Of a DNA stretch of 64,000 nt, positions 15,759 through 53,223 are shown piece after piece. Source of the stretch: Eledone cirrhosa (lineage: Eukaryota); contig OZ024741.1 of NCBI GenBank assembly GCA_964016885.1, positions 136,524,001 to 136,588,000 on the forward strand, in the 5' to 3' direction. Position numbers and translations under genes: made by a program. The notes under the pieces were generated by a model. The model was not told the DNA's origin. It saw nothing but the letters and a program-made list of their open reading frames with translations, and did not search any database. Position 1 is the first letter of the stretch. Each line of letters begins with the position of its first letter.

Positions 15759-17803
15759 ATGGATAACACAAAAAAGAGAGAGAGCGCTGTCAGACAACAC
15801 AGAGAGAGGGAGATTTTATCAGCATGTCAACAAAACAGCGTTCCAGCGGAGGTAAATATAAACGAAAATATTACAAAGGAAAAAAAGATTGTTACAGATT
15901 TAAAATTACCAAATATTTCTAACACAAACAACACCAACAATAACACCAACAACATCACCAACAACAACACCAAAAATAACAGCAGTAAAGTCGAGAACGA
16001 CAATAACAAAAATAACAGCGGTAAGGTCGAGAACGACAATAACAAAAATAACAGCGGTAAGTCGAGAACGACAATAACAATGACAATAACAACAGCCACA
16101 ACAACAATAATAGTAGGAACAGTATCAACAAAAACAACAATAATAACAACAGCCACAATAACAGTAACAGCAGCAACAGTATCAACGAAAACAACACCAA
16201 CAACTGTACCAGCGAAAACAACAACAATGACACCGATACCTGTAATAGCGACCTCAGCACCACCAGTAAGACCAGTAGCAGCAGCAATAGTGGTGCTGCT
16301 GAAAAAGGGACCACTTCTTTTGCAGGTGTCGCCCGAAATATCGAGACAGTGTTAGTCACAGAGGAGGAGATGGCAGTCGCAAGGGCCATGGTGACAAGAA
16401 GCGCAAATAGAGTTTCCCTGAAACCTCCACCCGATTTTTTCAAGGACCAGCAGCTACGGACGGTGACTTATCGCACCGTAAGCAAAATCTCACATCGAGT
16501 GGAGAGAGCCACGGAGGCTCAAATCCAAAAGGCCTTGGGGTGCGTCTGGGCACGCAAAACCCACATCACCCGAGGCAGAAAGTACGCCACGGTAGACGTA
16601 CTTTTCGCCACCTCCCAGGAAGCAAAGTCTCATTCTTTGGAAACCCTAAAGAGTGAGGAGATAGTCTTGGTGCCCTCCTACTGCGGGCAGAAAATTGTGA
16701 GGGTCAAAGTGACCCAGGTCCCACCCGACGTGCCCACACCTTGGCTGGCCGCGTCTGTCCTTGCTGGAATTGAGAACAGGGCGACCATGCTGCAAGTAGA
16801 AAAAATAGGGAGAGAGAACTGGTCAGGTATAGGCATGCAAATGCTTATACAAACTGACCAGGAATGTATCGAGGCTATCCCCGATATCATAGACTTCGAA
16901 GAAGGACTCCAACTCCCTATAAGTGTAGAAGGAAGACGGCCAAAATGTTATCTCTGTGGGTCGAAAGGTCACCTCAGGGCCTTTTTCCCGCAGAAGACAC
17001 CGAAGAGGGCCCCTCTCCTTCCAATACCTGGTCCGCTGCTACCAAGAGCAGGACAGGCAACAAACGAAGAAGCCCCTTCCACGGTGAGTAGGAGGGAAAC
17101 GTCCGTAGCCCCCGTACCAAGGCCACGGATAACTAAAGCAGCATCATCAGTAGCGGCAACACCAATAGCTACATTTGAAATAGCTACACCAGCAACAAAA
17201 TTGCCGAAGAAGGCTCCACTACCACCACCAACAGCCGTGGAGCACATACCCCTCCCAGACGCCACAGAATCCGACATGGAGTTTGAGGCGGGAGTGACGT
17301 GGCAAACAGTCTGCCACAAAAAACAAAAAACAAAAAAACCCTTAGATTCACCCTCCAAAAGCGAAGGCATACAAAGAGGGGTAAAGGCAGCAAGAAAACT
17401 TACAGCAACACCACCACAAACACCAACAACGCAAACACAACAAGACACACAAACCAAACAGCAACAAGAAGAAAACGGCAACAAAATCACCCCTCCCCCA
17501 AAAAAGTACACAGCCATAAACATAGAAAAAAAAGAACTCATAAAATATATAAAGCAGCACACAGACATCACGGAAAAAAACTACTACACCCCACCAACAC
17601 CAAGAACTCTCCCGACAAACATAAGCATCATCGAAATCTCAATAGAACACTACAAACCTTTAAAACAAAAATTCCCCAACGCAGTTGGAGACTTCTGAGG
17701 GACGGTTACCAAGAGGATATACACTGACATCCTCTTGGAAACACCCATGACCAGCGAAAGGGACGGTTCTACTGTCCCTTCACCACACGAACAAGGTAAG
17801 TGA
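15759..17803 (+). pseudogene. Tx1 copy 1 ORF1 (Asn-rich N-terminus, degenerate CCHC knuckle), with frameshift and stop
   Basis: MDNTKK start; CYLCGSKGHLRAFF knuckle; one frameshift in the Asn-rich repeat; TGA at 17696, after which the same frame continues to EQGK* at 17803. Confidence 0.75.
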
Positions 17804-17835
17804 CCCTTTCTCATTTGCCCGGTTTCTCATCCAAC

Positions 17836-20800
17836 ATGGCTGTACTCAGAATAGGCAGTATAAATGCACGTGGCCTGGGGTCATCTTGGAAGCAGGGTCA
17901 CCTGCTCAATGACCTCAGGTCACTAAACATAGATGTGGTGGCCATCAGTGAAACCAGAATCTCCGAGGCACGGGCCTTCGCACCGATCTTTGGCGGCTAC
18001 GATGTATACGCATCTCCCAGCCGTCCAGGATCGGGGGAGGGGTTGCCGTCCTTTTTCGGAGAGGCTTGGATCTCGCGATACGGGCCATCTTCCTGGACCC
18101 AGAATGTAAGTCGGTGGTGCTGGATGTGACCGACAGCGAAGGCAATGCTTTCAGGCTAGTAGCCGTCTACGCCCCAACAGGGGCAGGACGGCCAGATTTC
18201 TTCAGACGTCTAGAGACCTTTCTTGGAACGTCCCGCTCTTTAGTGTTAGTGGGCGACTGGAACGGCATCTTGGATGCACACTGGGATCGGGTGGGGCTAG
18301 TGGATAGGGGAGGAGGGTGCAAGAGCCTCACCAACCTGCTCAGACGTTTTGAACTGTCTGACAGATATCGACTGGATCACCCGAATGTGCCAATATGGAC
18401 ATGGACAAACCGCATAGGGTCATCCAGATCGTATCTCGATAGGGTATTCTGCAGGGAATTAGATAAGGCTAGTATAAGTTGTCCACAATTTAAAATAGTC
18501 GACTACACAGACCACAAATTTGTGATCTGTGAGATCGACATAGACAGACTTCATAGACACGGCCTGTTTACTGGAAGCTAAACGCGTCTTTCCCGGCGCG
18601 CAAGGCCTACAGAGACCGGATTAGCGTATTAGTTAAGCGGGCGTTGACGGGAGCGGTCGTCAACAACAGGTGGTGGTTCGCCCTGAAAAGGGCAATTAAA
18701 GTAGAGTCGATTAGGTTTAGCAAAGGAATAGTGATAGAGGAAAATAGAGTAGAGGGAGAGCTAGTCAGAAAGCTAGAAGAGGCGTTTAGGACAGGCATCG
18801 CAACCGACGTGCTTGCAGCGAGATTGGCACTCGACCAATTCTTCAACGCAAAACACGAAGGCTGCGTTGTCAGAGCTAGAGCGCGTGCTCTGAAATACGA
18901 GGGGACAAAAGCCATCCAATGGGCCCGGGTGGCAGAGGCGCGACGTGGCAACAAAGCCACAATTCGGTCTTTTCCTGACCAAAACGAGTGCGTGATGCTC
19001 GAACCTGAGCGGGTGTGTGAAGCTTTTCAGCAGCACTTTGCTGAACTGTTCGGGAGCGGCGGCGGTCCGGATCGGGGCATGGACTTCAGTGTATACCTCG
19101 ACGGACTGCCTCGGCTCTCGACGACCGCAGCACAGTGTTGCGAAAAGCCAATAACAGCCGGTGAAATACGGGAAGCGATGGCTAACTGCACAAGAGGTAA
19201 ATTGCCAGGTTTAGATGGTCTGCCCTACGAGCTTTATGCATTTATGCCAGACTTGTTCGGTGACCTCTTGGCAGACGTCTACTGCAACTGGCAGCAGAAC
19301 GGGAGCATTCCCAGTTTTGTGAGTCGGGGAGCAGTGGCGCTGCTGAGAAAAGACCCGAACAAGGGGGATGTTATTGATAATTTCAGGCCCATAACCCTGC
19401 TAAACGCAGAGTTCAAGATTTTGGCCAAGGTGTTAGCAACGAGGTTGGCGCTTGTCGTCAAGGGTCTGGTGGGAGGGGCGCAGACATGCGCGATTCCGGA
19501 CAAATCCATACACGACAACCTCCATCTCATGCGATACATCATAGAGAGGGTGGTTAAGGAACCTGGCAAGGGTGGGGCCCTGATCAACTTGGATCAATCC
19601 AAAGCATTCGATAGGGTCGACCATCGGTACCTGGCGGCGGTCCTCGAGGCAGCCGGTTTCGGGCCCGTTTTCAGGCGTTGGATCGCAGCAATGTACAGCG
19701 ACATCTGCTCAGTTGTGAGGGTGAACGGTTACCTGTCGCAGCCGTTCAGCATCATGCGCTCAGTCCGCCAGGGTTGTCTCCTCTCGTCCCTCTTGTACGT
19801 ATTGGCTCTCGATCCGTTACTGCACAAACTGGGTGCGATGAGGGGCGTCCCACGCGAACTAGGATGCGGGAAATCCGAGTCGGCTTACGCTGATGACGTC
19901 ACCGTGTTGGTGTCGAGCACCAGACACGTCCAGATGCTCGGCACCGCTCTCAAGGAATACGAAGCGGTGACAGGAGCAAAGATAAACCAGGAAAAGTCGG
20001 TGGGCTTGCAGCTAGGCACCTGGAGAGGCAAGTCCATGCCGTCCGACAGCTCGTGGGGCGTTGGACGGACGGACCGGTTAAATTGCTCGGGGTCTGGTTC
20101 GGACCGGACCTCCAGATGGAGAAAAACTGGAACGAGGTGACGAGCAGGGGGGCCTCCCTCACCCAGAAATGGGCTGAGAGGAAGCTGTCCCTGAAAGGCC
20201 GGGCGGAAGTGGTGAATGCGTACATCGCATCCGTCATCTGCTACCGCCTCACCGTCGTCCCTTGCTCCAGCCCAACTCTCACCAAAATGGAGCGCCTCCT
20301 CTTCCGCTTTTTGTGGAAGGGACGCGCTCCCATGGTCAGACGATCCATCTGCTGTCAACACCCGTTGCGTGGAGGACTGGGCATGCCATGGCTGATGATG
20401 CGCAAACATGAGCTGAGACTGCGACATCTCTGGTGCTTCCTTGATGGTGAACGGGTGTGGTCGCCGTTCGCCAGGCACATTTTCCCACAGCTCGTCTCCT
20501 TGACGGAGCTGCAGTCCTGGGTCAGAAAAAGACCGAGGGATAGCGCTTGGAAACTGGAATGTCTCCAGGCGCTCACTGCCCTCTCCCAGTTGGGCACCAG
20601 TATCGGTGGAACATCCACCTCGGCGTTCTATAGAGGACTAGTGGAAGGGAAGAGCGACGACATTCTCGGAGAGATCCTGGGCGTCGAAGAAGATCAGCTG
20701 TTTGCTCGCTTCCGGAGAACTTTCAGCCCGGGGCCTATGGATAACTTCCAAAAATCACTGGCCTGGCAGTGCTACCGGGGAGCGCTGCCGATTCGATATA

Positions 20801-21200
20801 AGCTCTACAGGCACGGAAGTGCCGTCAGCCGAGCCTGTCCGAGATGCGCGACGAAACTGTTGTGTACGCACTCGTTCAGTGCCCGAATATTGCTGACTTG
20901 TGGAGCTATGTCGAACAGTTGCAGATGGTCTCGCCGTCTTCCTTCGAGGAGGAATGGCAGGCAGTTTTCATCTGCCTGGTGGCCATGGCGAAAGAGATTG
21001 TGTGGTGGACAAGGTTAAAAGGATTAAAGACAAACACTTTCCTCTTCGGCGAATCCCTAATTAACTTTTTCAAGTTTCACTTGAAGAGGAAAATCAGGGT
21101 GGAGAGGCAAGTGCTGCTTTCTAGCAAGTTTGTTGAAAGGTGGGTGAATGTAGCGAGAATGGTCCGAGTGAACGGGACCACTCTGAATATACGTCTGTAG
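17836..21200 (+). pseudogene. Tx1 copy 1 ORF2 (APE endonuclease + reverse transcriptase + C-terminal Cys region), frameshifted
   Basis: INARGL/SETR, GDWN, SYLDR, TDH; PGLDGLP, FRPITLLN, LDQSKAFDRVDH, RQGC, YADD; CPRC. Split over several frames. Confidence 0.9.
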
Positions 21201-21523
21201 TTTGAGAGATGGAAAAATTGAGAGAGGGCGCTTGCCCTGGTAGTCAGGGTGGCCGTGGTCTTTTGTGTGGTTTTCGCCACGAGTAACCCTCGGAGGTTTC
21301 CCCCCTATTGGGGAATTTTTCATTGTTTCAATTTTCATTTTATTGTTTATATATATATATATGTTTTATGTCTTTTTTTTTTCTTTTCTTATATAAATAA
21401 TAAAAATATTTACACGCACAAACCCACATCGTACCGTCCTGTACCATCCTGTTCCGTCTGTGATGTTTTTCTTGATGTCAGCCCTTGTGGCCAATAAAGA
21501 AATCATTATTATTATTATTATTA

Positions 21524-21579
<56 letters not shown>

Positions 21580-21784
21580 GGTCTAAGCGGACGTATTTTG
21601 CTCGCTCGCAGTAAGTCGCTTTATTTGCCTGTTTAAATTATTTGTTGTTAAATATTTCTTGTTGTGTAAGGGATATAAGCCCTTAGACTTTGCTCCGTGA
21701 AGGGGAAAGTATAATATTTGGGCCTTTTGCCCCAAATATTTGAACTTTTTTTTACATGTTAAAACATTTACGAAAAAAAAAAAC

Positions 21785-23761
21785 ATGGCTGGGCCACGCG
21801 CCCCAGCGATATGTCGGCTGTCGTGCAACAACGACGTAGAAGTTGAGAGGAGCGCTACAGCGAAATTAACACACATTGATAACACAAACACCACCACAAA
21901 CAAGGTAAACAAAGACACCAATGATACCAATAAGAACTCTAATTTGAAAAAAAATGACAGTAACAGCGACAACGAAAATACAGATAACAAAAAAAAAAAT
22001 AACAAATACAACAACAATATCAACACCACTAACATGAAAACAAATAGCGACAACACCAACAGCAACAATACCAACTGCACCGAGAACAACGGTGGCAGCA
22101 AAGACAACAATGATAACAGCGACAGTGCTAACAACAACACCAACAAGAACAACGTCAACAACACCCCCAACGAAAACAAGACCACTTTCGCTGCGGCAGC
22201 AGCAAAAAAGAGGCCATGCTTCAACATGGACCTCTCAAACAAAGATGAAAAGTTGGCCCAGGCATGGAAGCTCATCAAGCAAGAGCAAACTTGGGCCAAC
22301 TTAACTGTCCCGGTAGAAGCTATTGAGGCAGTGGAGCGCAAAACGGTGCATTATAGATACATCTCAGCACAAACCAAAAGGGCAGCTTTAATCCCACAAG
22401 AAGATGTCGAAGTCGCGCTGAGGTGCATCAGAGAAGACACCCAGTACATAGAGAGGGGCAGACAGTACGGCACCATTTCGGTGTTGTTCAAGTCAGAAGC
22501 CCTCGCGATGAGACACGCCATGACTCCTTGCAAAACCAGCAAGATCATAATGTACCCCTCCCACATGGGAAAAAGAACGGTCCGTCTCCGCAGTCCCAGA
22601 ATCCCACCAGGACTTGACATGTGGTGGCTTCTGGGATGTGTGATTGTGGAGGGGACGGATACAGTCCCTATAGAAGTGACCAGAACGGCCAGAGAGGACT
22701 GGTCCGGGGTTGACCTGGAGATCCTTCTCCAGATCAGGCCCGAAAATGTGAAGACAATCCCAGACCACATTCGACTTCAGAATGGGACTGTCATTCACAT
22801 TATGACCGAAGGCAAAAGGCCGCAGTGTTTTGTTTGTGGGGAAAAAACCCATTTGCGAGCCTTCTGCCCTCAACTGCTGAAAGAGGCAAAGGGTCGAAAG
22901 GCTCCACTGCTGCCGACGCCGGGGCGAGGACCACAACCAACACCTGCACCGGCAAAACCACCAACAACAACACCAATAGAAAAACCACCACCAACATTGA
23001 CCACCCAGGGGGGAAACGAGGAAAGCTGTCAAATTCCCCTTCCCCCAAAAAATACACACACCAATAAAACCTTAAACATACATACAGACACACTTACAGA
23101 CACAGACCCCTCATCTACCAGTAGTGAAGATGAGGGAAATCCAAAATCCCCCAAAATACAAAAAAGGAAACACAAAAAGAAAAAAAAAACTCAACAAAGC
23201 ACAAAAGCACCCACAATAAAAAACGCAAACACCACCCACGCAAACATCTCTCCAATAACACCAACATCAACACCACCATCACCATCACTAGAATCCCCCA
23301 AACGCAAACAACCGAAACAGACGCAAGAACAAATATACACACAAACATCTGAAACCACAGACACCGCACTCACAACAAACACAGATACAACCGAAACAAC
23401 ACCACCAAAACCATCACCACCACAGCCACGCAAACAAATAAAATCACACCAACAAAACATACAAAACTTCGTGCTCGTCAGGAGGGCCAACAAGGAACTG
23501 ATGGCCCTCGTAGCACGAAGTGAAAATATACAAAAAGAGGGGGAAATTTTTTAATCGAGCACATTTCGCGTGCCGGAAGATTTGGTTCTGGTGCGAATGT
23601 CGCTCGACATATTCAAAGAAATACGAGACAGCTTTCCTCGGGACGTGGGAACCCCGAACGTAAAACCCACTTTAAGACTTTTAAAGGGGTTCCCAAAAGA
23701 AACCCCGCTAACTATGGAGGTCGAACAACCCAACCTTCACAAGAGCCCGGAAGGTAAGTAA
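21785..23761 (+). pseudogene. Tx1 copy 2 ORF1 (Asn-rich, CCHC knuckle, Pro/Thr/Lys-rich), one frameshift near 23550
   Basis: CFVCGEKTHLRAFC; the C-terminal part continues in ORF 23570-23761, homologous to the copy 3 and 4 C-termini. Confidence 0.8.
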
Positions 23762-23792
23762 ACCTTCCTCTCTCTCTGTTTAACCTGCCAAC

Positions 23793-26700
23793 ATGGCCGT
23801 ATTAAGAGTAGGATGTTAAAATGTTCGAGGCCTGGGATCGTCCTGGAAACAGGGTCACCTGCTCAACGACCTCAGGTCTATAGAAATGGATGTAATTGCA
23901 GTCAGCGAGACCAGGATTTCCGATACGCGCGCACTAGCCCCCATGTTCGACGACTATCAGATCTTTGCATCTGTTAGCCGGCCGGGAATGGGAGGCAGGG
24001 TGGCAGTGCTGTTTAGGAAAGGCCTGGATCTCGAGGTAAGGTCGATCTTCCGGGACCCGGACGGGAAGTTGGTGGTCCTGGACGTGAACAATAATGAAGG
24101 TGGTGCCTTTAGACTGGTGGCCGTCTATGCTCCTACTGGGGCAGGACGGCCGGACTTCTTTAGACGCCTGGAAACCTTTCTGGGTACGTCTCGCCCTTTA
24201 CTGTTAGCGGGGGACTGGAACGGCATCTTAGACGCACGCTGAGACTGTGTGGGAGTATCCGATAGGAGCGGGAGGTGCAAAAGCCTCAAGAACCTGATCA
24301 GCCAGTTCCAACTGTCTAACAGGTACCGACTAGATTTCCCTAATGAGCCAGTGTGGACCTGGGCTAACCGCATAGGGTCATCTAGATCGTATATAGACAG
24401 GATATTCATTAGGAAAATAGACAGAAATAGTGTAAGCTGTCCACGTTTTGAAACGGTCGCCTATTCAGATCACAAGTTTGTAATCTGTATGGTCGACCTA
24501 GATAAGACGCGTAGGTTAGGACCTGGTTACTGGAAGCTAAACATGTCATTTCCGGCACGTAAGGCTTACAGGGACCAGGTCAACAATTTAGTTAAGAAAA
24601 AGTTGACAGGGGGAGTCGTCAACAATAGATGGTGGGGGGCTCTCAAAAGAGAGATTAGAGTAATGTCGATAGAGTTTAGCAAAGAAGTAGCATTAGAGAA
24701 AAATAGAAAGGAGGGGGAGTTGGTAGATAAGTTAGACGAGGCTATTGGTAGTGGCATTGCAACTGATGTGCTAGCGGCGAGAATGGCATTAGACCATTTC
24801 TCAATGCGAAACACGAAGGTTGCATTGTCAGAGCTAAGGCGCGTGCTCTGAGAAACGAGGGAACCAAAGCTGTTCGATGGGCCGGCGTGGCAGAGGCGCA
24901 GCGTGGTAATAAAACCACGATTCGGTCTTTGATGGACCGAGACGGGCATGAGCTGAGCGATTCCAAGAGGATGTGTGAGGCCTTTTGCCAACATTTTGCT
25001 CGGTTGTTCCGGGGAAGTGGCGGGTCAGAGATGGTGGCGGACTTCAGTCCCTACCTCGATGGCTTGGCGCAACTCTCAACGGCTGACGCTGGGCGCTGCG
25101 AAAGGCCAATTACTTCAGCCGAGATTCAGGATGCCCTTGTAGGCTGCATGAGGCGCAAGTCACCCGGTTTGGATGGTCTGCCCTACGAGCTTTACGTAAA
25201 TATGCCAGACTTCTTCTTCAATCTCCTCGAAGCCCTCTACTGCAACTGGAAGCAAAACGGGAGTATTCCCAGTTCTGTGAGCCGGGGCGTAGTGACGCTG
25301 ATAAGGAAAGACGAGAACAAGAGGGACACATTAGACAATTTCAGGTCCATAACTCTGCTCAACACAGAGTTTAAGATTTTGGCCAGGGTGTTAGCGAAGA
25401 GGTTGTCGTCGGGGATTTGGTTGGGGAGGCGCAAACTTGCGCAATCCCAAGCAGGTCCATACACGACAACCTCCACCTAATGCGATACATCATAGAGAGG
25501 GTAGGGTGTAAACCTGGCTTCGGTGGGGCTCTGATCAATTTAGATCAATCGAAAGCATTCGATAGGGTCGACCATCGGTACCTGGAGGCTGTCCTCAGGG
25601 CGGCTGGCTTCGGCCCCGTCTTCATAGGCTGGATCGCTGCAATGCACAGCGGCACCTGCTCGATGGTCAAAATTAATGGCCACCTCTCGGAACCGTTTCA
25701 AGTCTCCCGATCGGTCCGTCAAGGGTGCCCTCTCTCCTCCCTTCTATACGTATTGACTCTCGAGCCTTTACTGCGGAAGCTGGAGCTGTTGCAGGGCATC
25801 CCGCTCGAACGGGGACGCGGAAAGGCTGTGTCGGCTTATGCGGACGACATCACCGTGCTGGTGTCAGACACCTCAGAAATCGAGGTGGTCGGCAACTTAT
25901 TGGAGGAATATGAAAGTTTGACGGGAGCAAAACTTAACCCGGAAAAGTCAGTAGGCTTGCAACTCGGCACCTGGAGAGGCAAGTCCATGCCGTCCAACAG
26001 CGTCGTTAGGCGCTGGACGGACGGACCGGTAAAGTTGCTAGGGGTTTGGTTCGGGCCAGGCCAGGTGGATAAGAATTGGGACGAGGTGACGGGTAGGGTA
26101 GTCAGTCTCACCCAGAAATGGGCTGGGATGAAGCTATCACTGAAAGGTCGGGCGGAGGTGGCGAACGCGTACATCGCGTCCGTCATCTACTACCGTCTGA
26201 CTGTCGTCCCTTGCCCGCGTTCGCGCCTGTCATCTTGGAGCGGCTCCTCTTCAAATTCTTGTGGAGGGGCCAGGTTCCGCTGGTGAGGCGGTCCATCTGC
26301 TACCAACACCCTCTACGTGGAGGGCTGGGCATGCCGTGGCTAATGATGCGCAGGCACGCGCTGAGGCTGCGGCATCTCCAGATATTCTGCCTAAACGGTG
26401 AACAGGTGTGGTCGCCGTTTGTCAGACGGGCCTTTCCGCAGCTCGTTTCTTTGACTGAGTTGCAGTCCTGGGTCAAGAAGAGACCGAGACTGGGTGACTG
26501 GCATCTGGAATGTTGCCAGGCACTCACTGCCCTCTACCAGGCGGGCAATGCGGTCAGTGTAACTTCCACTCTCGAGTTCTATAGAGGATTAGTGGTGGGC
26601 AAGTGCGACGACGCACTCGGAGAGGCTCTGGGAGTCAACGAAGTCGAACTAACCAGTCTGTACCGGAGGACTTTCGAGCCGGGGACGATGGATAATTTCC

Positions 26701-27202
26701 AAAAATCCCTCGCTTGGCAGTGCTACCGGGGGCACTGCCGGTTCGAGATAAACTCTACAGGTACGGAAGTGCTGTCAGACGGACCTGCCCGAGATGCGCG
26801 CAGAGCGACGAAACCGTTCTGCACGCACTCGTCCAGTGTCCGTGCATTACTGACTTGTGGAGTTATGTTGAACAGCTGTTGTCGCGTGTAGAACGGATCC
26901 GGCTATCGGCCGAGTCCATAGTGAAGATCGACCCACCGCCTTCTTTTGGCCAGGAAGGGCAGGCAATTTTCCTCTGTCTGGTGGCAGTAGCGAAAGAGGT
27001 TGTATGGTGGACGAGGTTGAAAGCACTGAAGACAGACACTTTTCTCTTCGGCCAATCCCTCATCAACTTTTTCAAGTTTCACTTGGAAAGGAAGGTCAGG
27101 GTCGTGAGAGAAGTGCTGCCCCCCAGTACATTTGCTGAAAGGTGGGTGAATGTGGCGAGAATGGCTCGTGTGAGTGGGCCTACTCTGGTCATGCGGCTGT
27201 AG
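23793..27202 (+). pseudogene. Tx1 copy 2 ORF2 (APE-RT), multiple frameshifts/stop
   Basis: SETR, GDWN, SYIDR, SDH, SPGLDGLP, LDQSKAFDRVDH, RQGCPLS, YADD, CPRC..ETVLHALVQC. Confidence 0.9.
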
Positions 27203-27495
27203 GTAGGTAAATTTGAAGAGGAGAGGGGTGCCCTTCCAGGGTTCTCTCGAAGCGTCGGGTCGTTCAGGACTGGTGGGGTACCTGAGCGAACCCTAGGTGG
27301 TCATCCCCCCTATTGGGGAATTTTTTCTTGTTGTAATTTTCTTGTTACTTTCTTTATTGTTACTTTGTTTATTCATATTGTTTACTCGATTTTTCTGTAA
27401 AACCCCACTGTCCCAGTCTTTTGTATTGTCCCCTATATGTCGGCCCTTGTGGCCAATAAATGAAATCATTATTATTATTATTATTATTATTATGC

Positions 27496-35872: not shown

Positions 35873-36060
35873 GATAATTGTTTCTACTTTTGGCACAAGG
35901 CCAGCAATTGCCCAGTGTATTACTGGTACTTTATTTTATCGACCCCTTAAGGATGAAAGGCAAAGTTAACCTTGGCGGGATTTGAACTCAGAATGGCAAG
36001 GACCGTAACTCTATGCGTCAAAGCATGGCGTCCGACCCTCTACCGATACTGCCAATCCAC
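35873..36060 (-). mobile_element. Full-length SINE inserted in Helitron helicase domain
   Basis: Reverse-complement match to 15199-15385; interrupts YRSSSTID...LQYPIQF. Confidence 0.85.
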
Positions 36061-37079
36061 CTGCAATATCCAATTCAGTTCATCAACAAACTTACCCCAT
36101 CAGGATTCCCAACACACATACTTAAACTGAAGAAAAGCAGTTGTATCATACTTCTGAGAAATCTGGATCCTCTAAACGAGCATTGCAATGGTACACGCTA
36201 CATTATCACCAGTTTACATAATCATGTAATTGAAGCTGAAGAGGCATTGGGTCCCAATGCTGGAACAATGTTGTTAATCCCAAGGATACCACATGTATCT
36301 CAAGAGCTTGAGTTCCATTTAACCTTTACTCGCAAGCAATTTCCTGTCAAACCAGCCTTTGCCCTTACATGCAACAAGGCACAAGGGCAGACATCTGAAA
36401 AGATAGGTGTATATCTACCAACACAATTCTTTTCACATGGTCAGATGTATGTTGCATTATCACGAGTTACAAAAAAATAAAATATAAAAATATTAAATGA
36501 AAGGGGTCTGTTTGCTGACAACTGTGTCTACAAAGAAATTCTACAGTGATGTGAAACAGCTATCACTCTTTTAGTTGAAATGCATTTAGTTTCTTTTTAA
36601 CTGCTAGAAAAGGGACACTACAAAAACTCAGGAAGTCTATATGTGAATACAGTAAAACAACAATATAGCGAAGGTCAACTCTTCATATTGGTAAATGTAA
36701 TTCATTCATACCAGTAGCATCTATTTTCAAATTCACTGCTTGAAGCTTCCCATCGACATTCTCAAGTGAAGATTCATAAACATTTTCCGTCAACAGTTTC
36801 ATCGCTTTTCCATCTCCGTTATCCCTTTTTTTTAAATGTATCATGGATTACTTTACTGATTACAGAAGTAAGTGTAACACAGTCTTTGTTCAGTTTATGT
36901 GCATATTGTCAATTTATGTATCATATCTATGTGCATATATATTTGCGTATATCAATATGCACACTATATATGCTAGCAGAAAACCGCCCGAGGGCGGTTC
37001 TTATGCTAGTTATTAATAATTATTAATTAATTATATCGTGCAATGCCTGTGTGTGAAGATATTTTTTTAAAATGAGGAA

Positions 37080-37736: not shown

Positions 37737-37998
37737 GTAGGTAGGTAAATAGATAGATAGACAGATTTCTTTATTTGCCACAAGGGCGCACAAGAAAAGG
37801 GGACAATACAAAGACATGCCGGAGATTTTAGATTCAGTCGTGTAAAAAATATAAAAACAAACAATTACAACAATCGAAATCCCCAATAGGGGGGAGGCGC
37901 CACAAATGGGTTGTTTAATACCCCGTCGATAGAACAACCCTCAACTCCAGGAAGTGTTGTGCAAGTGCTCCTTTCTTCCTTTTGCTCTCTTCTTCAAC

Positions 37999-40900
37999 CT
38001 ACAAGCTTATAAACAGAGAAGGCCCAATCACTCGAGCCATTTTCGCTTCATTGACCCACCTTTCAGTAAATTTACTGGGGTACAGTGCCTCACTCTCCAC
38101 TTTGATTCTCCTTCTAAAGTGATACTTAAAGAAGGGAATCAACTGTTGTCCGGAGAGAAAGGCATCTGTCCTCAGTCCTCTCAATCTCGTCTGCCATATA
38201 ACTTCTTTCACCATAGGCACCGTACAGAGGAAAACCGCCTCTCTTTCGTTTTTGAAAGAGGCTGGCGGTTTGATCCTTACTATGGACTCGGCAGTCAACT
38301 GGATTTGTCCCATATGCGACAGCAGTTGTTCTGCATAGTTCCACAGGTCGGTTACGCCCGGACAGTGTACAATAGTGCGCATCTTGGACACGTCCTCTTG
38401 GAAGGATCCCTGCCGGGGCGTCTGTGCCTGTAGATCTTGTCACGAACCGGTAGAGCTCCTTGGTAGCACTGCCAGGCCAGGGACCTCTGGATGTTGTCCA
38501 TAGGTCCCGGGTGGAAAGTCCTACCAAAGAGACTGGTGAGCTCATCGTCTTCGACGCCCAGAGTCTCTCCGAGCACGTCGTCGCCCTTGTAACGTACAAT
38601 TCCTCTATAGAATGTCGAAGTGGAGTCTCCACTGATTGCTGCGCCCGCTTGCCAGAGGACTATGAGCGCCTGAGCGCATTCAATGTGCCAGGCGCCTATC
38701 GTTTTCGGTCTTTTCTTGAACCAGGACTGCAGCTCCATCAGCGAGAAGAGCTGTGGGAAAGCCTGTCTCACAAACGGTGCCCACACCGGTTGGGGGTCGG
38801 TGAGGAATACCTGGAGATGCCGCAGCCTCAGTGCATGCTTGTGCATCATCAGCCATGGCATTCCCAGCCCTACGTTGGAAGGGTGCTGACAGCAGACGGA
38901 TCTCCTCACCAGCGGAGCCTGCTTCTTCCACAGAAACTGGAAGAGCATGCGTTCCATCTTGGCGAGGTGTTCACGGGGTCGAGGCACGACAGTCAAGCGG
39001 TAGTAGATGACGGACGCTATGAAAGTGTTCGCCACCTCCACTCGACCTTTCAAGGACAGTTTGCACTCTGCCCACTTCTGGGTGAGTGCAAACACCTTGG
39101 CCGTGACCTCGTTCCAGTTTTTCTCCACCTGGAGGTCTGGACCGAACCAGACCCCGAGCAATTTCAGCGGTCCGTCCGTCCAGCGTCCAACGACGCTGTC
39201 GGACGTCATCGGTTTGCCTCTCCACGTACCGAGTTGCAAACCGACAGACTTGTCCTGTCAGCGTTTCGTATTCTTTCAGTAAGTTGTCGATCACCCCGAT
39301 TTCCGATGTGTTCGACACCATTACCGTCACGTGGTCGGCATAAGCCGATGCCGCTATGCGCAGTCCCGGTTCTAGAGGGATGCCCTGCAACAGCTTCAAT
39401 TTCCGCACTAGTGGCTCTAGAGTCAATACATACAGAATGAAAGAGAGAGGGCACCCCTGTCGAATGGAACGCGTGATTGCGAACGGCTCCGATAGCTAGC
39501 CGTTAACCTTAACCCTCGAGCAGATGCTGGTGTGCATCGGCTCGATCCAGCCTCTGAACACGGGACCGAAACCGGCCGCCTTGAGAACCGCTTCCAAGGA
39601 TCGATGGTCGACCCTATCGAATGCCTTAGACTGTCCAAATTGATCAAAGACCCACCGAAGCCGGGTTTACTACCCACCCTCTCTATGATGTATCGCATGA
39701 GGTGGAGGTTGTCGTGTATGGACCTGGTCGGGATTGCACACGTTTGCGCTTTCCCTACCAGGTTCTCGACGACAAGCGCCAACCTCGTCGCTAGCACCTT
39801 AGCCAAAATCTTTAACTCTGTGTTGAGCAGAGTTATGGACCTGAAGTTGTTAATTTCGTCCCCCTTGTTCTCGTCTTTCCTGATCAGCGTTACTACGCCC
39901 TTGCCTGCAGGACTGGGAATTCTCCCGTTCTGCTGCCAATTGCAGTAGACGGCTTCGAGGATGCCAGGGAACAAGTCCGGCGTGCCTATGGTAGACCATA
40001 GGGTAGACTATCTAGACCGGATGACTTGCCTTTCCCGCAGCGGCCCAGAGCGTCCCGTATCTCAGTGTCCGTGATTGGTCTATCGCAGAACTCGGCGTCC
40101 GTGTTCGAGAGGCGCGGCAGGCTGTCGAGGTATGAACTAAAGTCCATTGCCCTGTTCGGCTCATCGTCGTTCTGCTCAAATAGTTGCGCAAAGTGCTGCT
40201 GAAAGGCCGCGCACATTTGCTTGGGGTCAAGTAGCACGCGTCCATTTTGATCTTTCAAAGACCGAATCGTGGACTTGTTGCCACTTTTTGCCTCCGCCAC
40301 TCGGGCCCAGCTGACAGCTTTCGCTCCTTCGTTTCCTAGAGCACGTGTTTTTCTTCTGACCACGCAGCCTTCGTGTTTCGCATCGAAGAACTGTTCCAGT
40401 GCCGTTCTTGACGCTAACACTCTAGCCGCGTTGCCACTTCTAAGTGCCTCCTCTACCTTGGCTATTAGTTCTCTTTCTAGTTTGTTTTTCTCTAAGGCTA
40501 ACTCTCTGCTAAACCCTATCGATTCTATTCTAATTGCTTTCTTGAGAGAGGACCACCATCTATTGTTGACGATGGATCCTGTTAACTGTTGCTTGACTAA
40601 TCTACTTATCTGTTCACTGTAAGCTTTACGTGCCGGCAACGACACGTTCAGCTTCCAGTATCCGGGTCTTTGTTTATGTGTTCTGTCACGGTTGACTAAG
40701 TAGACGCCTAATTTGTGATCTGAATAGGCAACCATGTGCATTCGTGGACAGCTTAACATCTCCTTGTCCCTTTCTCTAATGAAGAACCTATCTAAATACG
40801 ATCTAGATGTCCCGCTGCGGTTTGCCCACGTCCACTGTGGTGCAGTCGGGAAATCCAGTCGATACCTATCGGCCAGTTGGAATTGGCCGATTAAAGTTTT

Positions 40901-41402
40901 GAGGCTGTTGCACCCCGCTCTACTGGGACATGCTCCCACATAGTCCCATCGTGCATCTAGGATACCATTCCAGTCCCCCACTAAAATTAAGGAGCGAGAC
41001 GTTCCCAGAAAAGACTCTAGACGCTTAAAGAAGTCTGGCCGTGATTGCGATTGCCCGGTCGGGGCATAAACGGCCACCAGTCTGAAGGCTCCACCTCCAA
41101 TACGGTTCACGTCTAGGACTACCAGTCTACCCTCCGGGTCCATGTGTACTTGCTGTACTTCGACGTCCAGGTTCTTCCGAAACATGACAGCCACTCCACC
41201 CCCACCTCCTGGCTGACAGAGAGATGTGTAGATCTCAAAGTCGTCGAAGATGGGGGGTTAGTTGCTGCCTGTTGTGGATCCTGGACTCGGTGATGGCTAT
41301 CACATCCATACCGTGTGACCTAAGGTCGTTTAAAAGTTAGCCCTGTTTCCAGGGCATCCCTAGGCCACGCACATTCACGCTTCCAACTCGTATACTAGCC
41401 AT
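37999..41402 (-). pseudogene. Tx1 copy 3 ORF2 (APE-RT), multiple frameshifts
   Basis: GDWN, SYLDR, SDH, FRSITLLN, YADH (degenerate YADD), ending SLFISL*. Confidence 0.9.
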
Positions 41403-41443
41403 GTTGGTGAAGAAGAGTTGGAGAAAAAGGACGAAAGGTGCAC

Positions 41444-42965
41444 TTACCTTTTCGTTTCCTGGAGATCGGGTTGTTCAATCTCCATTTGGGTGCTGGATGG
41501 GGTGTTGGGTGGGGTGGGGAAACATTTTAACAGGACGCGGTTGATGGGTTTCTGGCAGGGATTGCCCACGTCCTGTGAAAATTTATTTTTCAGGTCATTA
41601 TAGGTTTCCATAGAAACACTTATAAGTTTAAGGTGTGGAGACGATTCTGCCTTGACGAAAGTTTTGCCCTCCGTCTCCACCTTGGGGTTTTTGGCGATGA
41701 CCTCCATCAAATTCTTGTTGTTTGTGTTGATGTATGCGTATTGTTGTTTGTGTTTTTGTTGTGTTGTTCGTCCGGGAGCTTTCTTTTTATGGTGGGTGCT
41801 TCTGTTTGGGGTGGTGTTGTTGTTGGTTTTGCTGATAGGGGGATGTTTGGCTGTGGTGCTGTTTGTGTTGTTGTTTGTGTCTGTGGTTGTGTGTTGGTGT
41901 TGGTGATTGAAGTTTTGGGGTTTTGTGGTGTCTCTTTTTTTTTGTTTTTTAGATTTCCGCGGCTCTCTCTCTTCTTCACTTAAAGAAGGAGAAGCAGCTT
42001 CATCCGTCTATGAATAATAATCATCAGGTGTGTGGGGTACGGGTATGTTGTGTGGTGGTGGTGTTTCGGTGTGTGTGTTTGTGGTAGAGTTTGATGGAAT
42101 GGGATGGGGCTGGGGCTGTGTTCTTCAGGGGTGTTGTCTCTGTTTTTTTCTGTTGTTTGTTTGGTGTGGTTGCTCGTTTCGTCTGTCGTTGTACTTGTGG
42201 TGGTGGTGGTTGTTTTGGTGTTGGTAATAGTGGTTTTTTAATGATGTTGTTGTGGTGTGTTTGTGAAGGACAAGAGGCTTTTAGGTGTGCTGTGCTACCA
42301 CAGCGAAAGCAAGGAAATTTACCCCCCTCTACCGAAATGTTTATTTTGTTGTTATCATCGATGACGACTCTTTCGGGTATTTTGGAGATTCTCTCCGGCC
42401 TCATTTGCAGCAGAATCTCCAAATCAGTACCCGCCCACCTTTGTCGAATATACTTTCGTATTGAAAGAATGGCATCCGTTTCTGGCTCTACGAAGCCAGC
42501 CAAGATCCACCAGATGTTAATGTTTGGGGGTATATATTTTTTTGTTGTGCCCTTTTTCCCATGTATGTAGGGAAAAAGGTAAATGCTTTTGACACCATTG
42601 GTGTCACAGAATGTTTTTAGGCGAGTGCCTCGCTTTTAAACAGTACGGAAACACTTCCGTACTGTTTTCCTCGTTGGAAAGAAATCGATATTTGCTAGAA
42701 TTTCCTTGAAAGTAGCTTCTATATCTGCTTGACTAACAAATATCAGCTTTCTCGTGGAATTGGACACAGTCCTAAAGGTGACTGATCTTCGAACTGTGTC
42801 TTCCTTTATTTCAAGTTAATTCTAAACCCACCCTTCTCTTTGAAAGTTACAAATTTTCTCCCTTGCTGGAACATATCTCTTGCATTGGAGATGTCAAGAT
42901 TTATAAAATCTTGTTTTTTGTTCACTGTTTCAGCGAAAGACATTTTCTTTTTTGTGTGGTGTTGC

Positions 42966-43017
<52 letters not shown>

Positions 43018-43257
43018 ATCGTTGTTATCCTCGGTGTTGGAAATCTCAGTTCCTTGACGAGGTGAAACTTTATGTGTAGATGTATCTGTGGAGTTGTTGA
43101 TGTCTTTTTCATGTGTATGTATGTTAATAGGTTTAATTTCTGTGTTTTCGTGTGAGTTAGTGTTATTTTTCTCCGCTTTGACGGTAGAAATTGTACAATT
43201 TTCGAGTGGTAACATTTTTTCCTCTTTGTTGACAGTCGTATCTATGATGACGTCCAT
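41444..43257 (-). pseudogene. Tx1 copy 3 ORF1, fragmented
   Basis: Poly-Asn N-terminus, CFRCGSTAHLKASC knuckle, KKPLLPTP, conserved C-terminal block. Confidence 0.75.
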
Positions 43258-43555
43258 AGTAGCGGAAGCAGATAGAACGTTAAAATCTACCTTTTTCTCT
43301 CTATTTTCTCTGTTTACGTTCTCCAGCGTTCTTGTCGTCTTATTCCTGTTTTATAGTTTTGATAAATTTGATATTTTAAAACAATTTTTAAAATAAAATG
43401 TTCACCCCTAGAGGGACGAAAAATGGGATTACCACCCACCTGACAATTCAGCTTGGGGTTAATCTACGAAATAATTTGTTTTTTCAAACAATTTGTTCTG
43501 TTTTTCGTATATAAATTTACAAAAAATCTTACCGGCGATGTTCCACGCGTCAGGC

Positions 43556-47268: not shown

Positions 47269-47296
47269 CATATATACATATATATATATATATATT

Positions 47297-47456
<160 letters not shown>

Positions 47457-47706: not shown

Positions 47707-47948
47707 TATATAGATAAATTTCTATTTATTTGCCACGAGGGCACAAAAGAAGGGGACATTTACACAGTGGGGGAGTTTACATAAATCGAGTAAAGAAAAA
47801 AGGAATAACAATAATAATATAACAATAAAAAGTCCTCAAAAGGGAGGGGGCGTGTTGGGGATTGCACATACCCCCGAAAAGTGTGCAACTCTTTTCGCGG
47901 GGGAAGCCCAGAGAGGAGGCGCTCCCCCTTTCCTCTTCACTTCTTCAC

Positions 47949-50900
47949 CTACAGAACAATGTAGAGAGAAGGCCCATTTACACGGGCCATTCTCGCTTCT
48001 TTCACCCACCTTTCATAAAACTGTCTGGGACCAAGCACTTCTCTCTCCATCCTGATTCTTCTTCCGAAGTGGTATCGGAAGAAGTAAACCAGGTGATGGC
48101 CGGAGAGAAAGTCACCCGACCTCAGACCTTTCAGGCGCGTCCACCACACAACCTCTTTCATCATGGTTATTACGCACAGAAAGACCGCCTCTGCTTCATT
48201 TCTGAAGGGAGGAGGCGGCTTGATGTTCACCACAGACTCGGCGGTTAATCGAATCGGCGCCACACGCGACAGCAGTCGTTCGACGTAGCCCCACAGATCG
48301 GCAACGCCCGGGCAGTGTACCAGTGCATGCGCAACGGTTTCCTCGTCGCGCACGCATCTGGGACAGATCTTTTTCGCGGGATCCCTGCCCGGGCGCCCGT
48401 GTCTGTAGAGCTTTTCTCGAACGGGCAGAGCCCCCCGGTAACACTGCCAGGCTAGGGACCTCTGGAAGTTGTCCATGGGTCCCGGGCCGAAAGTTCTACC
48501 GAACAGGCTGGCCAGTTCGTCCTCCTCCATGCCTAGCGACTCTCCAAGGGTGTCGTCGCCCCTGCTAGCCACCAACCCTCTATAGAATGTTGAGGTGGAT
48601 TCTCCACTGACAGTCGGGTCCGCTTGCCAGATAGCCGTGAGCGCCTGGGCACACTCAGTGTGCCAGTTGCCCAGTTTTCTCGGTCTTTGCTTCACCCAGG
48701 ATTGCAGTTCGGTGAGCGAGACGAGCTGTGGGAAGGCTCGCCTCACAAACGGGGCCCACACCGGCTGACCGTTGAGGAATACCTGTAGATGCCGTAGCCT
48801 CAATGCGTGCCTACGCATCAACAGCCACGGCATACCCAGCCCTCCTTTCGAAGGGTGCTGGCAGCAGATGGATCTCCTCACCATGGGAGGCCGCTTCTTC
48901 CAGAGGAACTGGAAGAGCATGCGTTCCATGATGGTGAGCTTTTCCTTGGGGCAAGGCACGACGGTCAGGCGGTAGTAGATGACGGACGCTATGTAAGCGT
49001 TCGTCACCTCCGCCCGACCTTTCAGTGATAGTTTGCACTTGGCCCACTTCTGGGTCAGCGCAAACACCCTGCTCGTCACCTCGCCCCAATTCTTCTCCAC
49101 CTGGAGGTCCGGTCCGAACCAGACCCCGAGCAGCTTCACCGGGCCCTCCGTCCACCGCCCGACGACACCGTCTAACGGCATCGGTTTGCCCCTCCACGTT
49201 CCGAGTTGCAAACCGACTGACTTGTCCTGGTTCAGCTTAGCCCCCGTCAGCCTTTCGTATTCCTCCAGTAGGGTGGCGATCGCCCCGATTTCCGAGGCGT
49301 CCGCCACCATTACTGTTACGTCGTCGGCATAGGCCGAGACCGCTTTGTGCAATCCCGGTTCCAGGGGTATGCCCCGCAGCAACTCCAACTTCCGCAGCAG
49401 TGGCTCGAGAGTCAATACGTACAGAAGGGAGGAGAGGGGGCACCCCTGTCTGATGGATCGGGTGATTTGAAACGGCTCCGAGAGGTAGCCGTTTACTTTA
49501 ATCCTAGAGTAGATGTTGCCACTGTGCATGGCAGAAATCCAGCCCCTGAAAACGGGTCCGAAGCCCGCCGCCGCTAGCACCGCATCCAGGTAACCATGGT
49601 CGACCCTATCGAACGCCTTAGATTGATCCAAGTTGATCAGGGCCCCACCAAAGCCGGGTTCGTAGCCAACCCTCTCTATGATGTATCGCATGAGGTGGAG
49701 GTTGTCGTGAATGGACCTGGACGGGATAGCGCATGTCTGCGCGTCTCCCACCAAACCACCCACCACAAGCGCCAACCTCTTCGCCAACACCTTGGCCAAA
49801 ATCTGTAACTCTGCATTCAGCAGAGTTATGGGCCTAAAGTTACTTAAGTCGTCCCCCTTGCTCTCGTCCTTCCTCACTAGCGTGACCACGCCCTTGGTCA
49901 CAGAACAGGGAATTCTCCCGTTCTGTTGCCAGTTGCAATAGACAGCCTCGAGGAGTTCGGAGAACAAGACCGGCATAGCTAAATAAAGTTCGTATGGTAG
50001 ACCATCGAGACCCGGGGATTTGCGTCTGCTGCATTGGCTGAGCGCTTCCCCGATTTCAGTGGCTGTGATTGGCCCTTCGCAGCACTCCGCTTCGCCGCTC
50101 GAAAGACGCGGTAGACCGTCGAGGTATGGACCGAAGTCCACATCCCCGTCCGGCCCCCCGCCACCTCCGAACAGTCGAGCAAAGTGCCTTTGAAAGGTCT
50201 CGCACATTCGCTCAGGTTCAAGGATCACCCGTCCATCCTGGTCTCGCAAAGACCGAATGGTGGATTTAATCCCACTCTTGGCTTCTGTCACGCGGGCCCA
50301 GCTAACAGCTTTGGTCCCCTCGTTTCCTAAAGCACGTATTTTACTTCGGACAACGCAGCCTTCGTGCTTCGCGTCAAAGAACTGGCTCAATGCCGTTCTC
50401 GTCGCTAACACTCTGGCTACGTCTCCGCTCCTAATCGCCTCTTCTAGTTTATCTGTTAACTCCCTTTCCCTCCTATTTCTATTCGCCGCTAGTTCCTTAC
50501 TGTAACCTATCGAACTTACTCTAATCTCTCTCTTTAGAGATATCCACCACCTACTGTTGACGATCGCTCCCGTCAACCGCATCTTAACTAAGCTACTAAT
50601 CCGGTTTCTGTAATCTTTCTTTGTCGGTAAGGACAAGTTCATCTTCCAGTAACCGGGACCCTGTCTATGCGTTCTATCAAGGTTGACCACGCAGGTCACT
50701 AATTTGTGATCTGAATAGCCAACCATGATCAGTTCTGGACAACTAAATACGTCCCTATCCTTACTCCTAACCAAAAACCTATCTAGGTACGATCTAGATT
50801 GTCCACTGCGGTTTGCCCAGGTCCAGGTTGGCGCAGTTGGACAATCTAGTCGAAATCTATCGACCAGGTCGAATCGATCGAGTAACCCCTTGAGGCTGCT

Positions 50901-51390
50901 ACACCCCCCTCTATCGGGACATGCCCCTGCATAGTCCCAACGCGCATCTAGGATTCCATTCCAGTCCCCCACTAAAAGCAGGGAACGCGACGTTCCTAGA
51001 AAAGTCTCCAGACGTTGGAAGAAGTCGGCTCTCTCCGCCCCGAAGGGAGCATAAAGACCGACCAGTCTGAAAGCCCCGCCTTCACCACCTCCGACGTCCA
51101 GCACCAGTAATCGACCCCCCGGGTCCGAGTGAACAATCTGTACGTCGAGAGTCAGACGTTTATCCAGCAGTACGGCAACTCCCCCCCCCCCCGCCTCCGG
51201 GTTGACAGAGAGATGCGTGCATCTCAAAGTCATCGAAGGCGGGCGCCAGCTGTCTCACGCTGCTGATCCGACTCTCGCAAACAACCATCACATTTATACT
51301 TTGTGACCTGAGGTCACTTAGAAGTTTTGCTTGCTTCCAAGCTGAGCTCAGGCCACGCGCGTTCAAACAGCCAACTCTCAATTGATCTAT
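47949..51390 (-). CDS. Tx1 copy 4 ORF2 (APE + RT + C-terminal Cys/His region); one frameshift in a G12 run, ATA at the expected start
   Basis: 1094-aa open frame with GDWN, SYLDR, SDH, SPGLDGLP, FRPITLLN, LDQSKAFDRVDH, RQGCPLS, YADD, CPRC..HALVHC; N-terminal LNARGL..CESR lies in the adjacent frame 51160-51381. Confidence 0.9.
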
Positions 51391-53223
51391 TTTGGTGTTG
51401 AAAGTGAAGAAAGAAAAGCACTTACCTCTCCGGGTTGCGTAATTTCCATGGCATCAGGTGTGTTGGGTGGAGGGATGTTTTGTGGTGGTGTGGGGGTACA
51501 CGTGTGTGGTGGGGTTGGGGTATTTGGAGTTGTGTCAGGGAGAGGGGCGGTTATGGGGAAATCTTTCAAGAGGACGCGATTCAACGGTTTTAAACAGGGG
51601 GGGCTCACGTCCCGTCTAAATTGTTCTTTTAAGGAACGATAAAGGTCCAGAGGGACCTTTATCATTTTTAAATGGGTGAAGTTCTCTGTTGAGATAAAGT
51701 TTGGCCCTTCGGTCTGCACCATAGGGTTATTGTTTATTAATTTAACCAGTTTTTTGTTTTCTTTATTTATATATGTGTATTGCAACGTCTTTTTTTGTGA
51801 TGCTGTCAATGTTTCGGAGAGGGGAGGCGCAGATTTATTTTTGTTTGTTGAGGGTGGGGTGTTTTTGATTGGAGTTGGTGTTTGTGTGTGGGTTATTTGT
51901 GGTGTGCTGGGTGTGTGTTTTCTTTTTTTTCTTTTAACTTGTCTGAAGGCTTCTCCTCCTTCTTCTTCAGAAGTTGGGGGAAACTCTTCAGCGCTAGGTG
52001 GGAGGGACGTGTTGTGTGGTTGTTTTTTTTTTGCGGGAGGGGTAGATTTGTTACTGTTTTTTTTATTATTTGTTTGGAATGGGTTTTGTGGTGGTGGTGG
52101 TGGTAATGTTTGTGTCGTGCTTGTGGTTGGTAATGGTGGTGGTGATGTTTGTGTTGTGGTTGGTGGTGGTGATTTTTGTGTCGTGCTTGTGTTTGGTGCT
52201 GGTGGTGGTGATGTTTGTGTTGTGTTTGTGGTTGGTGGTGTCTGTATTTTGTTTGCTGTGTGTGGTATTAGTGTATTTTTGGAGGTGGGTGGTGCTGGTG
52301 TACTGTTTGTGGTGGGTGTGGGCAATAGTCCTTTTTGGGGGATACGTTTCGGGCAGTTAGCCTTAACGTGTCCCCTTTCCATGCATAAATAGCATGCTGG
52401 TCTTCTCCCCTCTACAATTATGTCTATTGGGGTAAGGTCATCCAGCCAGATGCGATCCGGGATTTGTGCTATTCTTTCGGGCCTCATTTGGACTAGTATG
52501 TCGAGGCCCATTCCCAGGAACGCATCTCCAGTTGCCTTCCCCATTGACAGCATAGTGTCTTCGCCCATATCAATGAAGCCAGCAATAGCCCACCAGAAGT
52601 CCATTGTGGGCAGCATTGTTTTTACTTTTACCCTCTGTGTTCTTCTACCCATGTAGGAGGGATAGAAGCTATATGTTGTCGACGAGAGTGGGCTTAGGGA
52701 AAGCTGAACCGCCGTTTCTTTGTCTCTTGTTAGGACCGAAATGCTGCCATAGAGTCGGTCCTTTCGTATGAAGAGAATATTCTTCATATAGTCTTTTAGG
52801 ACTAACTCTATTTCCATTTGGCTGGGCTGTGCTGGCTTTCTTGACTGGTTTAGTATAGTTCTGTATATAACTGTGTTTTCTGCTCTGGCTTTCTTGAATT
52901 CTGGGGGGGAGTTAATGGAAAACATTCCGTTTTCCCCCAAAACAATATGTTTCTTTGCTTCGGCCAGTTTTTCTCTGGCGGCAGTTAGGTCAATTGGTGT
53001 GTATGTAATGGATTGCTTTGTTTTCTGGGCGAAAGTTGCCCTGTCGTTATTTGTATTATTTTCTGTTTGTTTGTTTTCTGTTTGCTCATTTTCCTTAACA
53101 TTTGTTTTTTCATTTTGTTTGTTTGTTTCAATGTCTAATTTTGTTGTAATTATTTTTTGTTCTTCAGACTTGGGGGGCGTGGCAGAGCTAATGGCAGACA
53201 TGTCTGCCATCTTTTCCGCCATG
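51387..53223 (-). CDS. Tx1 copy 4 ORF1 (CCHC zinc-knuckle nucleic-acid-binding protein)
   Basis: Uninterrupted frame of about 610 aa from the first ATG (MAEKMAD); CYLCMERGHVKANC; Pro/Thr-rich linker. Confidence 0.85.

Follow-up and report, generated by a model that had tools for sequence, protein, structure and literature searches.

Drosophila copia makes a spliced mRNA that encodes Gag only and the P element operates a tissue switch by splicing, and long interspersed nuclear elements (LINEs) are, to our knowledge, taken to be intronless. The Arabidopsis Ty1/copia element EVD also makes a spliced, Gag-only mRNA, shGAG (PMC5580714). Splicing of human L1 RNA has been described as a dead end (PMC5860796), the introns of TART lie in its antisense RNA (PMC1636488), and a 2026 repeat annotation of Octopus vulgaris lists thirteen recently active L1-Tx1 families in a main text that contains neither 'splic' nor 'intron' (PMC13282606). 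Full-text literature searches, with subscription papers, Repbase entries and supplements outside their reach, gave no report for any L1 or Tx1 element of a conserved splice donor at the end of the first open reading frame (ORF1), or of an intron made up of the second (ORF2). Here we describe such a donor in Tx1-like LINEs of Eledone cirrhosa. The window, which is the whole stretch of DNA analysed, comprises 64,000 nucleotides (nt) of a microsatellite-rich 3.0-Gb assembly (G000:C2:136524001-136588000) and contains four full-length LINEs, one from each of four families (F1-F4) with hundreds of copies apiece in the genome.

ORF1 of all four elements runs into the motif AG/GTAAGT (the slash marks the exon-intron boundary), and a comparison across families identified this motif as a 5' splice site, AG/GTRAGT (R, purine), that is under selection. 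Eleven families were compared, gathered by genome searches from copies of F1-F4, their neighbours and a further family, F6, and each was represented by one natural copy with donor and ORF2 end paired on that copy; one extra junction type from a single copy (L203, T at -1) was left out. Identity in ORF2 among these families was 69-94%, or 50-92% at fourfold-degenerate sites. The donor was present in all eleven, as GTAAGT in eight and as GTGAGT, GTGAGC and GTAGGT in one each, and all variants stayed within the donor consensus. It was preceded by G at -1 in every family and by A at -2 in ten, and fell in phase 1 in five families, in phase 2 in five and in phase 0 in one. From -2 to +6 there were five mismatches in 88 letters (P ~0.001 against 188 strict fourfold-degenerate ORF2 columns), and by the same comparison the motif was still conserved without the three possible stop-codon positions (P 0.004), whereas the eight bases on either side were not conserved (P ~0.99). 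These P values are optimistic because the tested positions were chosen on the motif. An initial annotation of the window, made from the four copies, had argued that protein constraint does not explain the donor, and the frame-independent constraint over eleven families and three phases bears this out.

The donors in the window were all located as that annotation had claimed, and the phases that it gave for copies 1 to 4 (1, 1, 2 and 0) hold in copies with an open ORF1. It had allowed for an extra A in copy 3; there is none, phase 2 being the family state, since 668 copies have that ORF1 end and the reading frame stays open over 638 codons in phase 2. The 8-mer AGGTAAGT occurs six times in the window against 2.66 expected, and four of 100 shuffles reached six, so that the count alone is marginal; it is outweighed because four of the six occurrences sit at the homologous ORF1 end, at the same place where DNA similarity between the families begins. 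Two further features were absent from the initial annotation. In ten of the eleven families the ORF1 stop is overlapped by the donor or comes directly after it, and a pyrimidine-rich spacer stands behind every donor, the 24 nt after it being 75-83% pyrimidine in all eleven families and the distance from donor to ORF2 ATG 28-45 nt. U-rich enhancers behind donors resemble this spacer.

In F4, where no stop codon or shared peptide constrains the donor, twenty listed copies comprised fifteen with GTAGGT and five with GTAAGT. Sixteen of the seventeen youngest copies carried GTAAGT, the form of the young subfamily, and the GTAGGT subfamily has a sister-like G-run. ORF1 homologues with named sources are from Octopus sinensis and O. 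vulgaris, in keeping with a probable octopod host. Outside this genome, ORF1 homologues at ~30-46% identity have GK, GKS or GKP as their last residues, or else continue as GE-Q-F-L-P-L-L. These ends match what a GGTRAG donor and spacer would encode, which suggests that the motif is older, the homologues being known from protein alone. Among 37 more distant L1-like metagenome loci, eighteen were inspected near the ORF2 start (some starts being uncertain), of which none had a donor with spacer and one had a donor-like match without it. The ORF1 end of one family, FB, looks ~40 nt longer, which may have moved its donor and changed the phase (L244, G000:C3:65267000-65275500).

The end of ORF2 offers a candidate acceptor. 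All four ORF2 copies in the window end in YTGTAG (Y, pyrimidine) as initially described, at 21200, 27202, 37999 and 47949. In the eleven-family set, YAG is found at the ORF2 stop in ten families and G at +1 in nine, 17-28 purines lie within the 30 nt after the stop, and AATAAA follows 198-267 nt past it. Scored by a home-made pyrimidine count rather than a trained model, the candidate AG came first of ~257 in both F4 and FJ, took ranks from 5th to 32nd in eight further families, and was fourth of 344 YAG columns. The pyrimidine tract that had been noted before the stop is present, though weak in F1, but it coincides with codons for a conserved G-P-S/T-L peptide and has no extra synonymous conservation. 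As judged from these letters, the site is a plausible, unproven acceptor.

Joining donor to acceptor would remove a putative intron of 3.4-3.5 kb, the whole of ORF2. The ends predicted for copies 1, 2 and 4 in the initial annotation, EQV, EGR and GEVKK, each followed by a stop, were correct; for copy 3 the predicted long tail stands (19 residues counting the junction codon) and the extra-A variant, G followed at once by a stop, is not the family state. Eight of ten families would gain a tail of at most four residues in the phase of their own donor (P 0.027 with random phases and 0.084 with permuted phases, the families not being independent).

Removal of ORF2 by splicing is the likeliest use of the donor, and binding of U1 without splicing is a close rival. 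The sequences suggest, tentatively, that the donor may let part of the RNA splice to the AG of the ORF2 stop, yielding an mRNA that encodes ORF1 alone and keeps the normal 3' end. It is similarly possible that this splicing would be partial or tissue-limited, into a terminal exon starting after the ORF2 stop, and that the ORF1-only mRNA would be kept from germline DNA. More tentatively still, the entire ORF2 could be a regulated spliceosomal intron, whose removal would give an ORF1-only mRNA (for more ORF1 protein, or as a somatic off state) and whose retention would give the mobile RNA, the spliced form staying out of germline retrotransposition. The U1 small nuclear ribonucleoprotein (snRNP) would bind the donor motif, helped by the U/C-rich spacer, and the 200-270 nt from the ORF2 stop to AATAAA would act as a terminal exon that favours this AG over internal ones, in the manner of exon definition. 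The spliced RNA would make ORF1 protein only, with its stop a few codons on, and might escape copying into germline DNA, whether through cis action of ORF2 protein or because splicing takes place mainly in the soma, as an off switch. Transposition and the making of ORF2 protein would still have the unspliced RNA as their template.

Several observations weigh against this splicing to the ORF2 stop. In family FB, ORF2 stops with TAA in all copies seen (~12 distinct ends, an intact copy among them), yet the donor is kept. Thirty-five of the 344 YAG columns are common to at least nine families and three internal ones score equal to the candidate or higher, and synonymous conservation at the acceptor is not raised (rank 90 of 309 windows, P 0.076). 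The join would give tails of 28 residues in F3 and 33 in FE. Precise ORF2-less retroposed copies, named beforehand as a test of the idea, were also lacking, the predicted junction being found in none of 2,141 genomic copies with the exact ORF1-end motif (F1, 0/252; F2, 0/505; F3, 0/668; young F4, 0/379; F6, 0/337). This count covers these five families and leaves out the other six, FB, FI, FJ and F7 among them; the tally of exact ORF1-end motifs took in the whole genome, and all copies that deviated at the diagnostic base were read, copies mismatched to the probe being missed. All twenty-one deviating copies carried point changes, small insertions or deletions, or an insertion. The predicted junction needs ~260 nt of spliced cDNA against ~3.7 kb of unspliced, so an abundant germline isoform should, given ordinary trans-mobilisation, have left copies, and such an isoform is therefore unlikely unless trans-mobilisation is very low. 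Since L1 proteins favour their own RNA (PMC5860796), the absence of spliced copies is no refutation, although at least seventeen near-identical frameshifted F4 copies hint at mobilisation of defective RNAs in this genome, and this would make the lack more telling. The suggestion that ORF2 is an intron is partly upheld: it is borne out as to its constrained donor and as to an ORF2 end that in most families is YAG/G, with a run of purines and then an early in-phase stop behind it, and is not upheld by the TAA of FB or by any ORF2-less copy. Conservation over the families, likewise proposed at the outset, held for the donor in 11/11 and for YAG in 10/11, FB being the family that has the one without the other. 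In FB, AAG/GT lies 7 nt downstream of the TAA end (L244).

Other traces were sought. Gapped two-motif patterns for spliced F1-F4 copies gave no match in the genome, with no positive control, and a search with ORF1 protein returned thirty loci that all continue into ORF2. One copy without ~3.3 kb of ORF2 (L057:12-754) was rejected as a splice product, with its donor intact and its break at a short microhomology; at the break it passes into a related family's 3' end. Sequencing-run contigs over an F3/F4 junction locus (L129) gave no donor-acceptor joint among the 15 of 629 joints listed, all fifteen of which come from three large runs, and at 15 of 629 the result carries no weight either way; the four runs, of one study, are of unrecorded kind. 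The fourth run, X4, is small, and two of its contigs span the acceptor and donor of F4 in unspliced form; such contigs attest presence only, and the run may be of DNA. Full-length F3 ORF1 had no match in the protein databases, in which an ORF1 C-terminal profile matched four proteins. Two Logan proteins with spliced-looking ends (PEG and PEVE, each before a stop) were rejected as evidence of splicing because a donor left unspliced can yield identical ends through single point changes, one of which is frequent in this genome.

The absence of spliced copies, the donor kept by FB, the unremarkable acceptor and the indifference to phase and tail length would all be accounted for if the motif were a landing site for the U1 snRNP that acts mostly without splicing, suppressing premature polyadenylation within the A-rich ORF1 or aiding the finishing and export of the intronless RNA, with the YAG an inherited coincidence. 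We regard this as somewhat unlikely. There is a precedent in EVD, whose U1 site keeps the full-length RNA from being terminated prematurely (PMC5580714). Ten of the eleven families have A(A/T)TAAA hexamers at most 350 nt upstream of the donor, but they are expected by chance in an A-rich ORF1 and no homology between them was established, and downstream in ORF2 hexamers are few (0-3 per family). U1 binding alone also leaves the early in-phase stops and the purine-rich stretch after the ORF2 stop unexplained. Splicing and protection by U1 can coexist, by analogy with EVD.

It is improbable that the donor is used with another acceptor, be it a YAG ~450 nt into ORF2 in the endonuclease domain, one in the next copy of a head-to-tail array, or a host exon. 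The site at +442 to +466 is YAG in ten of the eleven families with the top crude score, and tandem arrays with a period of ~5.8 kb exist. The outcome of a join at +450 is not conserved, being in frame in phase-1 families and leading to an early stop elsewhere, and probes of the third base after the donor would catch such a join in F1, F3 and F4, where none was found. This YAG with its pyrimidine tract lies in codons for LL-V-GDWN, for example near ~50972 (-) of the window. The possibility of a mini-intron that ends at an AG within the spacer was rejected, since it would measure only 30-39 nt and several families lack the AG.

A translational role is more improbable again, in which an ORF1 termination context, the pyrimidine spacer and a Kozak-like CCAACATGG would serve reinitiation at ORF2 and the likeness to a donor would be incidental. 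The length of the spacer would suit it, and in phase-2 families the stop codon occupies +2 to +4, so that the variants TAA, TGA and TAG are stop-to-stop changes. The motif, though, holds in phase 1, whose stop comes later, and in phase 0, which has none, and the conservation that is left without the stop positions is that of -2, -1, +1, +5 and +6. Least probable is that an ancestral 8-mer without function survived by chance, for while the motif was picked after the fact in related families and 37 of the 188 fourfold-degenerate columns are invariant anyway, conservation falls sharply on both flanks, the motif was kept through phase changes and the apparent ORF1-end duplication in FB, and peptide ends match in homologues of ~30% identity.

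The ORF2 products contain endonuclease, reverse transcriptase (RT) and C-terminal zf-RVT domains (PF03372 and PF00078 in Pfam, with PF13966 under its curated cutoff), and their best match in the PDB is human LINE-1 ORF2p (E 4e-54, against only 1e-21 for R2). By these domains and this closest solved relative the elements belong to the L1 group (L1/Tx1) of LINEs. A CCHC knuckle after the RNA-binding region is a feature of Tx1-clade ORF1, and a knuckle C-x2-C-x4-H-x4-C is found in four of five aligned ORF1s, its last Cys being altered in one old copy. Atlas neighbours of ORF1 carry zf-CCHC, and ZCCHC3-type RNA-binding domains at 0.89 are a lead only. All of seventeen F4 copies examined are flanked by (ATCT)n, and all eleven F1 and F2 copies printed by (ATT)n; many Tx1-clade elements target microsatellites (PMC4494074, PMC3812793). 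The elements fit the Tx1 clade in their knuckle and targets and are called 'Tx1-like' only.

Relatives of copy 3 elsewhere in the genome are intact, with an ORF1 of 596 and an ORF2 of 1148 amino acids. In F4 the ORF2 start, at 51390 (-) in the window, is ATA; 634 genomic copies start at ATA, and none has ATG in this context. F4 changes common to several copies of ORF2 are mostly synonymous (17 synonymous to 9 nonsynonymous against 42:63 for singletons, non-CpG, P 0.027), and this, despite the ATA, suggests that ORF2 is begun at a non-AUG codon or reached by a shift at the stop of ORF1. Between F4 copies, a slippery G-run, at 51181-51192 (-) in the window, varies in length. A run of 12 G that shifts the frame is common to the seventeen copies closest to the one in the window, from which it had seemed that all F4 copies are frameshifted; this was rejected, as ~10 of 20 listed copies are in frame.

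A distant ORF2 query revealed family F6, which is very young with intact ORFs and has 335 copies with the exact donor region. It forms head-to-tail arrays of up to ten units with a period of ~5.84 kb and short (ATT)n between units (G000:C1:423365588-423418125; L161, L162). In the window itself, broken Helitron-like Rep-helicase frames (PF14214) lie between copies 2 and 3 at 32553-36480 (+), and a retroelement fragment of different origin, a 3' part that matches zf-RVT weakly, lies between (ACAT)n tracts at 29289-30182 (+). A 388-codon frame at 8114-9280 (+) has no Pfam match and, by a motif in it, may be Penelope-like. A 26-bp satellite of 184 copies with 92% matches occupies 59222-64000 and runs past the window end. 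The features of the four elements are collected in Table 1.

Table 1. Positions of the four LINE copies, their donors and their candidate acceptors in the window.
Feature	Position	Strand	Remarks
LINE copy 1 (F1)	15550..21503	+	Full length, broken, within (ATT)n tract; 252 genomic copies with same ORF1 end
F1 donor AG/GTAAGT and pyrimidine spacer	17794..17835	+	GT 17796, phase 1, stop 17801-17803; ORF2 ATG 17836
F1 ORF2 stop, candidate acceptor CTGTAG/T	21177..21201	+	Weak pyrimidine tract
LINE copy 2 (F2)	21580..27466	+	Head-to-tail behind copy 1, in (ATT)n; 505 genomic copies with same ORF1 end
F2 donor and spacer	23752..23792	+	GT 23754, phase 1; ORF2 ATG 23793
F2 ORF2 stop, candidate acceptor CTGTAG/G	27179..27203	+	
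LINE copy 3 (F3)	37765..43552	-	In (ATCT)n tract; 668 genomic copies with same ORF1 end
F3 ORF2 stop, candidate acceptor YTGTAG/G	37998..38022	-	Join would give long basic tail, no immediate stop
F3 donor and spacer	41403..41449	-	GT 41447, phase 2; ORF1 stop TAA within donor; ORF2 ATG 41402
LINE copy 4 (F4)	47715..53425	-	Young copy within (ATCT)n; open ORF1 with its ATG at 53222
F4 ORF2 stop, candidate acceptor	47948..47972	-	First of 259 AGs downstream of donor (crude pyrimidine score)
F4 donor and pyrimidine spacer	51391..51427	-	GT 51425, phase 0; stop codon neither in nor beside motif

Selection has preserved a 5' splice site across ~30% divergence, which implies that this clade, with its hundreds of copies here that are young and intact, makes purposeful use of the spliceosome or U1. 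Should ORF2 be removed by splicing, LINEs would have reached the solution of copia, with more structural protein than enzyme, or a tissue switch like that of the P element. If U1 acts without splicing, the elements would be a natural example of LINEs that guard their A-rich RNA themselves.

The nearest parallel is EVD, in which a conserved 5' splice site likewise ends the structural ORF, splicing gives a new stop and an mRNA for the structural protein only, and U1 guards the full-length RNA (PMC5580714). EVD is a long terminal repeat element with an intron of ~300 nt on average and premature termination, whereas the elements described here are LINEs with separate ORFs, known from sequence alone, and the putative intron of 3.4-3.5 kb would be all of ORF2 with the normal 3' end kept (PMC5580714). 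The human spliced RNAs SpORF2 (PMC2896524) and SpIREs (PMC5860796) also come from an L1-group LINE, and there both donor and acceptor sites work. Those RNAs lose the 5' untranslated region (5'UTR) or ORF1, keep ORF2 and left genomic copies, unlike the present case, in which the donor is kept across deep family splits, the putative splicing would drop ORF2 and no copy was found (PMC2896524, PMC5860796). The predicted spliced RNA would consist of 5'UTR, ORF1 and 3' end, as do HAL1 elements, the ORF1-only derivatives of L1, which differ in being genomic families whereas no precise ORF2-less copy was found here (PMC5753468). Within the Tx1 clade the elements resemble Kibi and Koshi, which insert into microsatellites, (TC)n for Kibi and (TTC)n for Koshi, and have two ORFs, the second with apurinic/apyrimidinic (APE) endonuclease, RT and zinc finger (PMC4494074, PMC3812793). 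They differ from these in their targets, (ATT)n and (ATCT)n, and in the donor at the ORF1 end, a splice donor going unmentioned in the descriptions of Kibi and Koshi consulted (PMC4494074, PMC3812793).

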